Source: Escherichia coli
Lineage (GTDB): Bacteria > Pseudomonadota > Gammaproteobacteria > Enterobacterales > Enterobacteriaceae
NCBI RefSeq assembly: GCF_013315695.1
Contig: NZ_CP054353.1
DNA length: 64,000 bases
Strand: one strand, 5' to 3'
Shown here: positions 9,094 through 55,630 of the stretch, piece by piece
Layout of the letters: each line of letters starts with the position of its first letter
Numbering within the stretch: the stretch's first letter is position 1
The notes under the pieces: generated by a model
Told to the model about the DNA's origin: nothing
The model's input: only the letters and a program-made list of their open reading frames with translations
Database searches by the model: none
Program-made: the position numbers and the translations under genes

Positions 9094-9579
<486 letters not shown>

Positions 9580-13235: not shown

Positions 13236-13247
13236 TTGTGCACCGAT

Positions 13248-13280
13248 GCCTGATGTGACGCTTGTCACGTCTCATCAGGC
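13248..13280. terminator. hairpin between convergent pgpA and yajO
   Basis: inverted repeat gcctgatg...catcaggc in the 53-bp convergent intergenic gap. Confidence 0.45.
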
Positions 13281-13288
13281 CTGCATAC

Positions 13289-14263
13289 CTATTTAAATCC
13301 TACGACCGGATGCGGTTTATACGGCGTTTCCAGTTCAGCAATCTGTTCCGGCTTCAAGGTGATATCCACCGCGTTCAGCAATTCATCAAGTTGTTCTTCC
13401 CGCGAAGTACCAATAATCGGCGCGGCAATGCCAGGTTTGCTCAACAACCATGCCAGCGCGACTTGTGCTCGCGTTGCCCCCAGTTCTTCACTGACGTCCG
13501 TTAAGCGTTCTGCAATCTGCGCGTCATTTTCATCGCTTTCTTGGTAGAGATTTTTCCCCACTTCATCCGACACCAGCCGCGCGGTGGTTTCTCCCCACGG
13601 ACGCGTCAGACGTCCCCGCGCCAGCGGGCTCCACGGAATCACCGCTACGCCTTCCTGATAACACAGCGGCAGCATCTCGCGCTCTTCTTCACGATAAATC
13701 AGATTGTAGTGATCCTGCATACTGACAAACTGCGCCCAGCCGTGCTGTTTTTGTAGTTCCAGTGCTTGAGCAAACTGCGAAGCGTGCATGGATGACGCGC
13801 CGATATAACGCGCTTTCCCGGCTTTTACCACGTCGTTGAGGGCTTCCAGCGTCTCTTCGATCGGCGTGTTGTAATCCCAGCGATGAATTTGCAGGATATC
13901 GACATAATCCATGCCGAGACGGCGCAGGCTGTCGTCGATAGAGCGCAAAATTTGTGCACGGGATAATCCTTCCGGTAAATCACCAACGCGATGGAACACT
14001 TTGGTCGCAACGACCACGTCTTCACGACGGGCGAAATCCCGCAGTGCGCGACCGACGATCTCTTCGCTGCTGCCATCGGAATAGCTATTGGCGGTATCAA
14101 AGAAATTTATGCCGCCTTCCAGCGCACGTTTAATAATGGGACGGCTGCTCTCTTCCGGCAGTGTCCATGCGTGATTACCGCGATCTGGCTCGCCAAAGGT
14201 CATACAGCCGAGGCAAAGTCGGGAAACGCGAAGGTCGGTTTTTCCTAAGGGCTTGTATTGCAT
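13289..14263 (-). CDS. yajO: aldo-keto reductase YajO
   Basis: 324-aa ORF with aldo-keto reductase features; conserved position. Confidence 0.93.
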   Translation of the reverse strand: MQYKPLGKTDLRVSRLCLGCMTFGEPDRGNHAWTLPEESSRPIIKRALEGGINFFDTANSYSDGSSEEIVGRALRDFARREDVVVATKVFHRVGDLPEGLSRAQILRSIDDSLRRLGMDYVDILQIHRWDYNTPIEETLEALNDVVKAGKARYIGASSMHASQFAQALELQKQHGWAQFVSMQDHYNLIYREEEREMLPLCYQEGVAVIPWSPLARGRLTRPWGETTARLVSDEVGKNLYQESDENDAQIAERLTDVSEELGATRAQVALAWLLSKPGIAAPIIGTSREEQLDELLNAVDITLKPEQIAELETPYKPHPVVGFK

Positions 14264-19000: not shown

Positions 19001-19013
19001 TATGTGGTTGTAA

Positions 19014-19040
19014 CGTCGCATCTGGTCAGATGCGACGTTT
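19014..19040. terminator. hairpin terminator between convergent thiI and yajL
   Basis: perfect 10-bp stem cgtcgcatct / agatgcgacg with 4-nt loop followed by TTT. Confidence 0.6.
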
Positions 19041-19053
19041 GCCGCATCCGACA

Positions 19054-20518
<1,465 letters not shown>

Positions 20519-20560
20519 TGTTCCTCCTCACCCGCAACCACTCCGGGTGTTCAATAAGGC

Positions 20561-20608
20561 TATCCCTTAATTGTGCATGCTGTTGCGACTATGCACAATT
20601 AAGGGATA
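20561..20608. promoter_or_regulatory. 18-bp perfect inverted repeat (tatcccttaattgtgcat / atgcacaattaagggata, 12-nt spacer) in the divergent panE-yajQ intergenic region
   Basis: reverse complement of the left arm equals the right arm exactly. Confidence 0.5.
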
Positions 20609-20685: not shown

Positions 20686-21177
20686 ATGCCATCTTTCGAT
20701 ATTGTCTCTGAAGTTGATCTTCAGGAAGCACGTAACGCGGTCGATAACGCGAGCCGCGAAGTGGAGTCCCGTTTTGACTTCCGTAATGTTGAAGCCTCAT
20801 TTGAGCTGAACGACGCCAGCAAAACCATCAAAGTGTTGAGCGAGTCCGATTTCCAGGTCAATCAGTTGCTGGATATTCTGCGTGCCAAGCTGCTGAAGCG
20901 CGGCATTGAAGGCAGTTCACTGGATGTACCGGAAAATATCGTTCATAGCGGTAAAACCTGGTTTGTGGAAGCGAAACTGAAACAGGGCATTGAGAGCGCG
21001 ACCCAGAAGAAAATCGTCAAGATGATTAAAGACAGCAAACTGAAAGTGCAGGCGCAAATTCAGGGCGATGAGATCCGTGTAACGGGTAAATCTCGTGATG
21101 ATTTGCAGGCTGTCATGGCGATGGTACGTGGGGGCGATCTCGGTCAGCCGTTCCAGTTCAAAAACTTCCGCGATTAA
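20686..21177 (+). CDS. yajQ: nucleotide-binding protein YajQ
   Basis: 163-aa product starting [18 protein letters not shown]; ATG at 20686 inside the longer track ORF. Confidence 0.93.
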
Positions 21178-21204
21178 TCGCGACAACCTGCGCTTTGTTC
21201 ATGT

Positions 21205-21295
21205 CAGATGCGGCATGAACGCCTGATTTGGCCTACAAAGGTTTATAACTCAGGAACTTTGTAGGCCTGGTAAGCGTAGCGCAGCAGGCAATTTC
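21205..21295. repeat. REP-like palindromic units (BIME-like) between yajQ and yajR
   Basis: gatgcggc...gcctgat..ggcctac motif plus an inverted copy; 11-bp inverted repeat ggcctacaaag / ctttgtaggcc. Confidence 0.5.
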
Positions 21296-21304
21296 GCCTC
21301 GCTT

Positions 21305-22669
21305 TTATGCCTGGCGAATTGCCTGTTCAACCTCAAAGCGATTCGTCACTTTGCTGTCGATTTTCACATACGCTGAATGTTCTTCTTCTGCAATCAACAC
21401 TTCTTTGACGCCTTCAGTTTCCAGCAAACGTACTTTTAACGCTTCGTTTGCGGCAATGTCCGCCGGGATTTCAATGCGCAAGCTGCTGACATACGGCGGT
21501 TCTTTCATGGTACTGGCGACTGCCAGCCACACTGCGGCCAGCATTGCGCCAGCGAGAAATACGCCCTGACCGTCAAACATGCCGTCAATCCAGCCGCCCA
21601 GCGAACCGCCAATCGCCACGCCAAGAAACTGGCTGGTGGAGTAAACACCCATCGCCGTACCTTTGTAACCTGCTGGCGATTCTTTACTGATAAGTGAAGG
21701 CAGAAGGGCTTCCATCAAATTAAACGCCACAAAGAAAAGCTGCACGCCGACCACCAGTTGCCAGAACTGCGTTTGTGCGTTCCACAACACAATTTCCGCA
21801 ACCACGATCAACCCGACGCAAAAGACAAAGACTTGCTTCATTTTGCGCTTAACTTCAGCGTAGATAATGAAAGGCACGACCGAGCCAAAGGCGATTAACA
21901 TCGTTGCCAGGTAGACCTTCCAGTGTTCAGCCGCCGGGAACCCCGCATCAGCCATCTGTCCGGGCAGGGCAACAAAGGTCGACATCAGCAAAATATGCAG
22001 ACACATAATGCCAAAGTTGAGTTTCAGCAGCCGCGGTTCCGCCAGCACTTTACTGAAACTGCCTTTCACCATTCCGGACTCACGATTAAGTACGTGAGTG
22101 CTACTGTTGGGCACAACCCAAATGGTCAACGCAATGCCGGTTGTTGCCAGAATAGCGATCATCCAGAACAGCGCGTGCAGCCCAAGTTTGTGAGTGATGA
22201 TCGGGCCAAGTACCATCGCAATGGCAAAGGTAATGCCAAAGCTCACGCCGATAAACGCCATCGCTTTGGTGCGGTTTTGTTCGCGCGTAAGATCGGAAAG
22301 CAGCGCCATAACGGCAGCGGCAATCGCACCGGAGCCTTGTAGCGCCCGGCCCAGAATAATTCCCCAGATGGAGTCAGAGAGCGCAGCGATAACGCTACCG
22401 GCGGCAAACACCGCCAGCCCACCGACAATTAATGGTTTGCGACCAATGCGGTCTGAAAGCAGGCCAAACGGAATCTGAAAAACGGCCTGCGTCAGACCAT
22501 AAATACCAATGGCAATACCGATTAATGCTTCGCTGGCACCTTGCAGAGCCATGCCGTACGTGGTCAGAACCGGCAGAACCATAAACATGCCCAGCATGCG
22601 CAACGAGAATACGGTGCCTAAACCCCAGGTCGCGCGCCGCTCACCTGGCGTCATTTTATAATCGTTCAT
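21305..22669 (-). CDS. yajR: MFS transporter YajR
   Basis: 454-aa product starting MNDYKMTPGERRA, AAGAGG ribosome-binding site 5 nt upstream; 12 TM-like segments plus C-terminal soluble domain. Confidence 0.92.
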   Translation of the reverse strand: MNDYKMTPGERRATWGLGTVFSLRMLGMFMVLPVLTTYGMALQGASEALIGIAIGIYGLTQAVFQIPFGLLSDRIGRKPLIVGGLAVFAAGSVIAALSDSIWGIILGRALQGSGAIAAAVMALLSDLTREQNRTKAMAFIGVSFGITFAIAMVLGPIITHKLGLHALFWMIAILATTGIALTIWVVPNSSTHVLNRESGMVKGSFSKVLAEPRLLKLNFGIMCLHILLMSTFVALPGQMADAGFPAAEHWKVYLATMLIAFGSVVPFIIYAEVKRKMKQVFVFCVGLIVVAEIVLWNAQTQFWQLVVGVQLFFVAFNLMEALLPSLISKESPAGYKGTAMGVYSTSQFLGVAIGGSLGGWIDGMFDGQGVFLAGAMLAAVWLAVASTMKEPPYVSSLRIEIPADIAANEALKVRLLETEGVKEVLIAEEEHSAYVKIDSKVTNRFEVEQAIRQA

Positions 22670-23075
22670 TACCACCTCTTAAAAAAATGCCCACATAGTG
22701 TAGTGCGGAGCGCATGTTGGGTAAACAGAGTGTTAATGAGAAAATATTACAGAGGAGAATAGTTTGTGTGTCAGGTATGTTTATTTTGCATTCATAAAAT
22801 GAATGCTCTATATGTTGAAAAAATTATTCTTAAAGCTAAATAGTTTTACATCAAAAGTAATAATATTATTTCTTGATTGCTATGTGCATTTTTTATCTTG
22901 CGAACATGCTATTTTTATCTCACTAAATAAACGATTTGGTGACATCGATGATAATGTTTCAGGTTAAATGTGTGCTTATTACTTGGGCCTTTATTGTACT
23001 GTATTTATTCATTAAATGGATGTTTGGTGGTTAATTATCATGGAAATATATGACAGAGAGAGCATAAAGGTATAC

Positions 23076-24011
23076 ATGTTAACTAAAAGAATATTATTTT
23101 CTTTAATGCTAATAGTTTCACCATGCGTGGTGGCAAGCGAGAAAGCGCATGAATTGTATGACAGCATATACGGTGGTCAACCTGCGCCCGATGTTATAAA
23201 TAGACTGCATAAAATGGCTGAATTGGGAGATGTCGACGCGCAGAGCCTGTTAGGCTGGGAATATTATCAGCCTCGCTTTGATACCAAACCTGATGTTCAG
23301 GAAGCGATTAAATGGTTTGAGTTAGCCGCTAAACACGGTGATAGAGAAGCTCCGTTAGCGCTGGGGAGTATCTACTACGACGGTGAGCTGGTGCGGGTGG
23401 ATTATGCCAAAGCGTATGCACTATTTAATCAGGCCGCGCAATACGGTGTGAATTTAGCATGGTCCAGGTTGGGCATGATGTACGCCAATGGTCAGTATGT
23501 TGAGGTCGATTGTAAGAAAGCGAAGGAATATCTTGATAAAGGTGTCCACATTTATGGTGGTCCGGAAGACTTTCTGGCTACATGTCGAAAAGACATGATT
23601 GACAGAAAAATGGTTGACGATACGTTACCCGTGATCACGGTTACCCGTTCTGGGATGCGGGATAATTTTTTAGATAAAGGTTTTTCCTGCATGGATAGCC
23701 TCTTCGCCACCACCAATAAATTAGGCGAAGTGGCCAATCTTCGCGTGACATTCAGCATTCGTAGCCCATCCGGTAAGGAGATTAACCAAACGGTTGGCTT
23801 CGCGCCTTTCGGTTTAAACCGGCTGAATATTAGCTTTACTGATTACATATTTGATTCATTTACCAGTAATTCGTCTCTAATTCTTTATAAACCGGAATTT
23901 GAGCGAAAATCTTGTGCAACTGTAAGGACCACAATCGTTGCCGCAACGGCAACCATTAACGGCAAGGATGTGGAGTTGCTGAAAGCGGGGGCAATTGAAC
24001 AAAAGTGGTAA
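23076..24011 (+). CDS. secreted Sel1-like repeat (SLR/TPR-like) protein with uncharacterised C-terminal domain; absent from the K-12 arrangement as I recall it
   Basis: ATG at 23076 with AAAGG ribosome-binding site; N-terminal signal peptide (cleavage around VVA-SE); repeats of LG..Y..G.GV..D..KA..WF..AA..G; AT-rich codon usage. Confidence 0.75.
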   Translation: MLTKRILFSLMLIVSPCVVASEKAHELYDSIYGGQPAPDVINRLHKMAELGDVDAQSLLGWEYYQPRFDTKPDVQEAIKWFELAAKHGDREAPLALGSIYYDGELVRVDYAKAYALFNQAAQYGVNLAWSRLGMMYANGQYVEVDCKKAKEYLDKGVHIYGGPEDFLATCRKDMIDRKMVDDTLPVITVTRSGMRDNFLDKGFSCMDSLFATTNKLGEVANLRVTFSIRSPSGKEINQTVGFAPFGLNRLNISFTDYIFDSFTSNSSLILYKPEFERKSCATVRTTIVAATATINGKDVELLKAGAIEQKW

Positions 24012-24066
24012 CGCTGCTCAGTCCCCGGCTGAGGCAAAACTAGCCCTGGCCGGAGGCGATAATAAT

Positions 24067-24609
24067 CTAAGCCGCGAGAATATGCTGAATCGCTAAAAAC
24101 ATCGGTACAGCACCGAAAACATTGGGCCTCGCTGAAAGCTGAACAAAGCCGAGGCGAGTATAAAAGTTAATGGCGGCAGGGTCAGCATCAAGATAAACCC
24201 CTTTAATTGGTAATGCACGGTGAATTATTTTTACATGTTCAAAAAAATCACATAGTAGGTCCTGACCAAAGCCCCGCTTTTGATATTTCCGCGCTACCCC
24301 TAACATGACTAATCTGACAACACCAATCTCTGAAGGTTGTGAACCCTGAAGGACGCCAGAAACGCGTTGTTTTTCCAGCGAATATGCCGTAAAAGTACAG
24401 ATGCCAATCAGTTCACCACTTTGTCTGTCAATAAGAGCTTTAGCAGCACAGTCGCTATTACGCACACTTTTCTTTAGCGATGCGCGTACAAATTTATCGA
24501 TAACAGGGTTACCGCAATCAAACTGTTTTTGCCCAGGATAAGTAATATCAGACTGATAATTACAGGAGAGGACTATGGGCAGAGTAATCTCTTCATGCTT
24601 GTCGACCAT
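24067..24609 (-). CDS. GNAT-family acetyltransferase toxin (TacT/AtaT/ItaT-like) of a type II toxin-antitoxin pair
   Basis: 180-aa ORF with FDCG motif near the N-terminus and acetyl-CoA-binding motif QKRGFGQDLL; start overlaps the stop of the upstream antitoxin gene. Confidence 0.75.
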   Translation of the reverse strand: MVDKHEEITLPIVLSCNYQSDITYPGQKQFDCGNPVIDKFVRASLKKSVRNSDCAAKALIDRQSGELIGICTFTAYSLEKQRVSGVLQGSQPSEIGVVRLVMLGVARKYQKRGFGQDLLCDFFEHVKIIHRALPIKGVYLDADPAAINFYTRLGFVQLSARPNVFGAVPMFLAIQHILAA

Positions 24610-25046: not shown

Positions 25047-25076
25047 ATAAAAAAGGTGCCGTAGCACCTTTTTTAT
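25047..25076 (-). terminator. rho-independent terminator of the cyoABCDE operon
   Basis: stem aggtgc-cgta-gcacct flanked by A6 and T6, directly downstream of the cyoE stop. Confidence 0.7.
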
Positions 25077-36974: not shown

Positions 36975-37005
36975 TTAACCATTCCCATACAATTAGTTAA
37001 CCAAA

Positions 37006-37040
37006 AAGGGGGGATTTTATCTCCCCTTTAATTTTTCCTC
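37006..37040 (+). terminator. candidate terminator after clpX
   Basis: gggggga / tctcccc stem followed by T-rich tract. Confidence 0.45.
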
Positions 37041-37049
37041 TATTCTCGG

Positions 37050-37080
37050 CGTTGAATGTGGGGGAAACATCCCCATATAC
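37050..37080 (+). promoter_or_regulatory. sigma-32 heat-shock promoter of lon
   Basis: TTGAAT at 37052-37057, 13-nt spacer, CCCCATAT at 37071-37078; matches the sigma-32 consensus. Confidence 0.65.
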
Positions 37081-37161
37081 TGACGTACATGTTAATAGAT
37101 GGCGTGAAGCACAGTCGTGTCATCTGATTACCTGGCGGAAATTAAACTAAGAGAGAGCTCT

Positions 37162-55516: not shown

Positions 55517-55630
55517 GGGGGCTCTGTTGGTTCTCCCGCAACGCTACTCTGTTTACCAGGTCAGGTCCGGAAGGAAGCAGCCAAGGCAGATGACGCGTGT
55601 GCCGGGATGTAGCTGGCAGGGCCCCCACCC
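55517..55630 (+). ncRNA. ffs: 4.5S RNA (signal recognition particle RNA)
   Basis: 114-nt sequence GGGGGCUCUGUUGGUUCUCCCGCAACGC...GGCAGGGCCCCCACCC recognised as E. coli 4.5S RNA, including the conserved domain IV motif. Confidence 0.95.

Follow-up and report, generated by a model that had tools for sequence, protein, structure and literature searches.

Genomic context of the yajQ-yajR intergenic region

In the 64,000-nucleotide stretch of Escherichia coli DNA analysed here (the window), the region of interest has the gene order panE (minus strand), yajQ (plus strand) and yajR (minus strand), and the open reading frames match the annotated E. coli genes. The left open reading frame, which ends at 21177, is 100% identical to annotated yajQ, and the right one, on the minus strand and ending at 21305, is annotated yajR. 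The two genes converge on a gap of 127 nt between the yajQ stop codon (21175-21177, plus strand) and the yajR stop codon (21305-21307, minus strand). Two REP units lie in this gap, both of them extragenic. An earlier note on this DNA had described two REP-like units in opposite orientation in the convergent gap, including a perfect 11-bp pair, and this description holds: the GTAG/CTAC ends of the units face each other, and the arms of the pair are 100% complementary and 16 nt apart. The cluster had been placed at 21205-21295, where it is indeed found, but this span is slightly short, as the homologous element extends from 21180 to 21299 (Table 1).

Table 1. Features of the convergent yajQ-yajR gap and its borders (positions are those of the window)
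Feature	Position	Strand	Sequence and remarks
Weak terminator-like hairpin	21168-21183	-	CGCGATTAATCGCG followed by a T-run; yajR-sense; overlapping with the stop codon of yajQ
Left flank of the BIME-1 mosaic	21180-21202	+	GCGACAACCTGCGCTTTGTTCAT; aligned to profile positions 28-50 (ctgacaaagtgcgctttgttcat) with high posterior probability
Unit 1, degenerate Y-type palindromic unit	21203-21236	-	GTCAGATGCGGCATGAACGCCTGATTTGGCCTAC; GTAG on the minus strand; identified with the Y query and the Y-partner HMM
Tail-to-tail hairpin/cruciform	21230-21267		11-bp perfect arms GGCCTACAAAG (21230-21240) and CTTTGTAGGCC (21257-21267); 16-nt loop
Shortened L linker	21237-21260		24 nt vs canonical 35; IHF core deleted
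IS621 target-like site	21261-21271	-	ACCAGGCCTAC; differs at one position from ATCAGGCCTAC, the natural target
Unit 2, short-Z (Z1) palindromic unit	21261-21289	+	GTAGGCCTGGTAAGCGTAGCGCAGCAGGC; GTAG on the plus strand; identified with the Z1 query
Right flank remnant	21290-21299	+	AATTTCGCCT vs canonical aattttgcgt; profile positions 149-158
Extra inverted repeat	21285-21325		CAGGCAATTTCGCC (21285-21298) with GGCGAATTGCCTG (21313-21325); yajR stop codon in the loop

Family membership of the two units

A REP unit is defined as an imperfect palindrome of 30-40 nt that forms a hairpin with mismatched bases in its stem (PMC3333891), and Durrant et al. (PMC11208160) have printed the three query sequences that the field uses for REPs (Y, short-Z and Z2). 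The published Z1 query matches unit 2 from 21289 to 21261 with 27/29 identities (E = 2.7e-7), the sole such match in the 64 kb, and the Z2 query gave no match at the yajQ-yajR locus. Unit 1 is identical to the published Y query at 28 of 35 positions, and the 7 mismatches are too scattered for blastn-short, which with this query did not reach the unit at E <= 1. A profile HMM of 68 Y units, chosen solely for adjoining a Z1 unit elsewhere and not on their own sequence (the Y-partner HMM), does match 21236-21202 over its full length (E = 1.5e-5), and this is the top match of that HMM within the window. The conserved tetranucleotide GTAG, which in REPs is found on the 5' side of the palindrome's foot, stands at 21261-21264 on the plus strand of unit 2, and its complement CTAC at 21233-21236 in unit 1. 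A generic scan for GTAG with at least 10 Watson-Crick pairs, which picked up about 40 REPs of canonical form in a 152-kb part of K-12, missed both units because they are degenerate or short.

Copy numbers were counted across 5426 complete E. coli genomes. Per genome, the median number of similar places is 34 for unit 2 alone (an undercount), 7 for unit 1 alone and 20 for the 96-nt element comprising the pair; the 46-nt tail-to-tail linker junction occurs at exactly one place per genome. The units are therefore repeats dispersed over the genome, and the linker is peculiar to this locus. Both units thus show the traits of REPs, namely an imperfect palindrome (weakened in unit 1), GTAG, a match to the Y or Z1 class, dispersed copies and an extragenic position, which for REPs is mostly a 3' UTR.

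BIME-1 architecture of the element

When species-representative genomes were searched for exact copies of the Z1 core CTGATAAGCGTAGCGCATCAG, 120 loci were returned, and E. albertii, Pseudocitrobacter faecalis, Citrobacter and E. coli supplied most of them. The contexts of these loci are strikingly uniform: a left flank (..CTGACAAAGTGCGCTTTGTTCAT) precedes the Y unit, which is joined to the Z1 unit by a 35-nt linker (AAAATCGTGCAAATTCAATATATTGCAGAAACCTT), and a right flank (AATTTTGCGTTTGTCATCAG) follows. This arrangement is the BIME-1 architecture, as it fits the definition of BIME-1 as a Z1 and a Y unit in single copy with a long conserved linker (L) that frequently carries an IHF site (PMC3333891).

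A profile HMM built from 127 independent short-Z (Z1) REP contexts matches 21180-21299 of the window with 91.7 bits (E = 6.2e-28), which is its only significant match in the 64 kb; the profile is independent of the locus, since none of its core matches comes from a yajQ-yajR gap. The left flank, visible in most of 130 Z1 contexts, is aligned here, and about 10 nt of the right flank are alignable, the remainder being mostly replaced. We take the left flank to be the 'A' motif and the right flank the 'B' motif of the older literature.

The element resembles BIME-1 (also named RIB or RIP when it binds IHF) in its inverse Y and Z1 units with facing GTAG/CTAC ends, in its single, non-tandem copy, in its left flank, part of its right flank and a recognisable 3' half of L, and in its extragenic location at transcription-unit 3' ends; the gap contains one Y and one Z1 and no further units. 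It departs from BIME-1 in that L measures 24 nt instead of 35 with the IHF-like core deleted, in that Y has diverged at 7/35 positions with a weakened hairpin, in that most of the right flank has been replaced, and in that the perfect tail-to-tail stem is 11 bp long, against 7-10 bp in canonical copies. BIME-2, in which Y and long Z2 units are repeated in tandem with short linkers, does not describe the element, whose unit 2 is of the short form and shows no tandem repetition.

The same distinction separates the locus from REP325/naRNA (Rfam RF02564), a BIME-2-type element between yjdM and yjdN. The two share the REP superfamily and a 3'-UTR location, and unit 1 has a weak match of 17 bits to the REP325-derived Rfam model naRNA4, which is far under the gathering score of 59.5 bits. 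REP325, however, is composed of 12 units, with Y and long Z2 in tandem and short linkers, and the yajQ-yajR gap has one Y and one short Z1. Beyond this sub-threshold match on unit 1, Rfam gave nothing at the locus, a result that counts as uninformative and not as negative.

To check its reading, the earlier note had suggested scanning with a REP consensus model, and the significant matches obtained with the Z1 query, the Y-partner HMM and the whole-element profile bear that reading out. Its description of a REP/BIME-like cluster, of a kind ordinary in E. coli intergenic regions, was likewise correct: both units and the whole mosaic match the family, and the repeat is a catalogued one. In a K-12 transcriptome paper, the REP adjoining yajQ is named REP40a (PMC10100675), and since yajQ is listed there with REP40a, the element was already catalogued; the name REP40 rests on one paper's table, as the RefSeq K-12 copy is without REP features. 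The RefSeq annotation of K-12 has no REP features at yajQ-yajR, nor at the yaaX-yaaA element. The yaaX-yaaA element is presumably the one annotated as RIP1. Because it is likewise left without REP features in RefSeq, the lack of such features at yajQ-yajR means nothing. In the accessible part of the supplements of a recent preprint on REPs (bioRxiv 10.64898/2026.03.23.713779), yajQ, yajR and REP40 are not mentioned.

Shortened linker and IHF site

In the nhmmer alignment, the linker has an 11-nt gap opposite cgtgcaaattc, the IHF-like core of canonical L, while its 3' half aligns (TATAACTCAGGAACTTT vs tatattgcagaaacctt); the 11 nt are absent relative to the canonical modal length of 35 nt. Even at its best position the linker shows 3 mismatches to WATCAANNNNTTR, the same as random 24-mers of the window, whereas 58/98 canonical linkers have 1 mismatch. 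Judged by its sequence, the linker would thus not carry the IHF site that marks the BIME-1/RIB subclass, and it appears to be best described as a deletion derivative of the BIME-1 L. Because its linker has 3 mismatches where canonical linkers mostly have 1, we regard the element as a BIME-1 derivative that probably lacks the IHF site.

Predicted secondary structure

The 11-bp pair is made up of the two REP tails (GGCCTAC / GTAGGCC, 7 bp) and 4 bp contributed by the linker ends. The window has 7 loci with a short-looped perfect inverted repeat whose arms are 11 bp or longer (shuffled sequences gave 0-3 seeds), and an 11-bp inverted repeat alone is not remarkable, so the case for the element rests on family membership. 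As RNA, the tail-to-tail hairpin has a predicted stability of -18.4 kcal/mol on the plus strand and -17.1 kcal/mol on the minus strand, more than is predicted for either of the REP units here; the RNA folds of the whole gap are likewise dominated by this hairpin, which appears in the single-stranded DNA fold too. The gap as a whole is predicted to fold more stably than its shuffles (plus strand, z = -3.9; minus strand, z = -3.3). With perfect tail-to-tail stems of 7-10 bp in canonical BIME-1, the 11 bp found here are slightly above the usual length, and they are not conserved, the O157 and RM14723 alleles having one mismatch each.

The individual units are predicted to be weaker. Unit 1 (34 nt) folds with -12.2 kcal/mol on the plus (yajQ-sense) strand, using G-U pairs and leaving an internal mismatch, and with -4.7 kcal/mol on the minus (yajR-sense) strand, and unit 2 (29 nt) folds with about -9.4 to -10.8 kcal/mol; the published consensus folds are -21 kcal/mol for Y and -11.5 to -13.2 kcal/mol for Z1. 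The REP hairpin starts 15 nt past the yajR stop codon, presumably close to the distance reported to stall terminating ribosomes.

In the extra inverted repeat (CAGGCAATT[T]CGCC / GGCGAATTGCCTG), the Z1 head and right flank are paired with the final five codons of yajR. It has a 9-bp perfect core, which in the K-12 version is 11 bp, and minimum-energy folding of the 3' regions predicts the extended stem for both the window and K-12. It may have arisen by chance from the codons CAG GCA ATT, or by quasi-palindrome correction. The weak terminator-like hairpin at the yajQ stop codon is the only such site in 20900-21600 (shuffle mean 0.6) and lies outside the element.

Distribution and divergence in E. 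coli

A 181-nt region containing the element was found in 5296 of the 5426 complete genomes, at an identity of at least 99% in only 32 of them and of 90-95% in 3529. Both flanks are adjacent in 5284 genomes, with a spacing that was always about 121 nt in the sampled rows, and the linker is present in 5286 genomes, in agreement with this number. A search for empty sites, i.e. alleles without the element, across the E. coli genomes detected none, and the element occupies the site in every E. coli genome with adjacent gene ends. We conclude that the element is fixed in E. coli and that it evolves fast. In almost all genomes its coding flanks have an identity of at least 95%, and it is far more polymorphic than a second non-coding sequence 600 nt away, a palindrome in the panE-yajQ region (at least 99% identical in 32 vs 5351 genomes). 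This fast divergence argues for weak constraint on the element.

The panE-yajQ palindrome itself, in the divergent promoter region at 20558-20608, has perfect 18-bp arms (TATCCCTTAATTGTGCAT and ATGCACAATTAAGGGATA) around a 12-nt loop and is identical in K-12; the genomes in which it is at least 99% identical are counted out of 5424. It was counted at 2 places per genome, which we take to be one locus whose palindrome matches on both strands. Possible identities are an operator and a hairpin of the 5' UTR.

Outside E. coli, a Y-like unit and a Z-like unit are likewise present in the yajQ-yajR gap of Pseudocitrobacter faecalis (9096-9194 of the stretch from that species). Their GTAG/CTAC ends face each other across a linker of 17 nt, and a BIME-1 flank is absent. 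The stem of the Z-like unit has paired changes (CCCGAT/ATCGGG vs CCTGAT/ATCAGG), and the pair of units may have been inherited from a common ancestor or acquired independently. Canonical E. coli-type BIME-1 elements were also seen on contigs labelled as Oscillospiraceae, Bacteroides and Bacteroidales metagenome-assembled genomes, which are most likely mis-binned enterobacterial contigs.

IS621 at the tail of the Z1 unit

IS621 belongs to the IS110 family and uses a bridge-RNA recombinase. Its natural target is ATCAGGCCTAC (PMC11208160), and this sequence is present as a perfect match in the K-12 allele and in most alleles of the Z1 tail; the window allele differs from it at target position 2. 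In strain cS108a, homology to the window stops directly after CTTTGTAG (window position 21264) and is followed by an IS621 transposase gene (401-915 of the cS108a stretch). The same junction, at the GTAG tail of Z1, was found in 46 of the 5426 complete genomes. The locus is therefore like the natural IS621 target sites in REPs in that its Z1 tail carries the target and has received the insertion, and unlike them in that the target here is a passive property of the REP tail and the window allele has one mismatch. As a natural landing site that is occupied in these 46 genomes, it could serve as a strain marker.

Origin and possible role of the element

The palindromes between yajQ and yajR are an already catalogued, ordinary E. 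coli repeat and no new feature. The analysis refines the earlier reading: the element is of the BIME-1 type and spans 21180-21299, its Y unit has decayed, its IHF core is deleted, and its Z1 tail is used as an IS621 target. Taken together, the evidence makes us confident that the element is a fixed, decaying copy of BIME-1 architecture, belonging to the E. coli REP/BIME family and situated in the 3' region that yajQ and yajR, as convergent genes, have in common.

Such an element would have arisen through the RAYT/TnpA-REP system and would no longer be mobile. The convergent yajQ and yajR transcripts would both run into it, and its hairpins would then hinder 3'-to-5' exonucleases and possibly also provide a partial, Rho-assisted stop to convergent read-through. 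The main hairpin at the locus would be the tail-to-tail stem, which at a predicted stability of about -17 to -18 kcal/mol should be equally stable on both strands. We infer that the element likely acts as a stable 3'-end hairpin for both convergent mRNAs. This proposal is consistent with the report that REPs block exonucleases and act as partial Rho-dependent terminators, that about 60% of them lie between convergent genes, and that in this position their presence is correlated with raised expression of the two genes (bioRxiv 10.64898/2026.03.23.713779). Several points count against an RNA role. The same preprint found no general effect of REPs on mRNA half-life, unit 1 is predicted to be weak on the yajR-sense strand (-4.7 kcal/mol), the 11-bp stem varies between alleles, and the element diverges fast. 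The locus was also considered as an independent sRNA gene, a candidate that was dropped because no sigma-70-like promoter site was found in 20900-21600 and no Rfam family is present.

The strong predicted hairpin on both strands between convergent genes is also what would be expected of a bidirectional intrinsic (Rho-independent) terminator that merely resembles REPs, and some 78 REPs have been placed inside predicted bidirectional terminators (bioRxiv 10.64898/2026.03.23.713779). However, the tail-to-tail stem is not followed by a U-run on either strand (plus, GGCCUGGUAAGCG; minus, GGCCAAAUCAGGCG), and the terminator scan of 20900-21600 returned nothing on the plus strand and on the minus strand only the weak site outside the element, and the homology to the repeat family is overwhelming, which together make a terminator very improbable. 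We consider it equally improbable that the element is a functional BIME-1/RIB whose main role is the binding of IHF at transcription-unit 3' ends: the Y-linker-Z1 architecture with BIME-1 flanks would agree with this, as would the frequent IHF site of the BIME-1 L (PMC3333891), but the linker has 24 nt and not 35, the 11 nt opposite the IHF-like core are gone, and the match to WATCAANNNNTTR is at the random level, where most canonical linkers come within a single mismatch.

A REPIN-like doublet that is still moved by a RAYT would have the expected form, because two inverted REP units with GTAG tails are cleaved by TnpA-REP in vitro (PMC3333891), and GTAG and stem mismatches, the sequence prerequisites for binding and cleavage of a REP by TnpA-REP as single-stranded DNA, are present. 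Current mobility is nevertheless exceedingly improbable for a single orthologous copy that occupies the same site in more than 5280 genomes, with no empty site detected, a linker that is unique in the genome and a unit 1 that has 7/35 mismatches. A chance palindrome unrelated to any repeat family, which the frequency of perfect 11-bp inverted repeats in the window (7 loci) might suggest, is refuted by the profile match and by the multiple similar copies of each unit per genome, and its probability is practically nil. We also see a slim chance, somewhat better than that of any of these alternatives, that the loss of the IHF core, the 11-bp stem and the approximately 13-bp stem around the yajR stop codon together form a selected, symmetric 3'-end module that tunes translation termination or mRNA decay of yajR.

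For the preferred reading, a decaying BIME-1 copy, the significance lies mainly in annotation, since a correct assignment keeps the palindromes from being taken for a new regulatory element, sRNA or terminator, and it has little importance beyond this. The element is, in addition, a clear example of a BIME-1 copy without an IHF site that is yet fixed at one site across the species, and an example of such elements evolving much faster than neighbouring non-coding DNA.

Other features of the window

Further REP-like sequences occur elsewhere in the window. In a cluster at 13245-13333, a Y-like head (CCGGATGCGG...) comes after a Z2-like unit that has diverged (GCCTGATGTGACGCTTGTCACGTCTCATCAGGCCTGC), both with only weak scores. 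In the thiI-yajL gap, a perfect hairpin with 13-bp arms (19012-19057, ACGTCGCATCTGG/CCAGATGCGACGT region) overlaps a REP-like unit on the minus strand (GTAGTGTCGGATGCGGCAAACGTCGCATCTGAC).

Next to yajR in the window, at about 22800-24100 (open reading frame 23016-24011, plus strand), lies a gene for a tetratricopeptide/Sel1-repeat protein. In the matching genome NZ_CP033635.1, a GNAT acetyltransferase gene is next after the Sel1-repeat gene, and in K-12 cyoE directly follows yajR; the Sel1-repeat region beside yajR is a strain-variable insertion. The Rfam matches at gathering level in the window, the sraA sRNA (36995-37090, minus strand) and the 4.5S (small SRP) RNA (55525-55621, plus strand), are as expected for this part of the E. 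coli chromosome. A textbook bidirectional intrinsic terminator, AAAAAAGGTGCCGTAGCACCTTTTTT, is located at 25047-25076.
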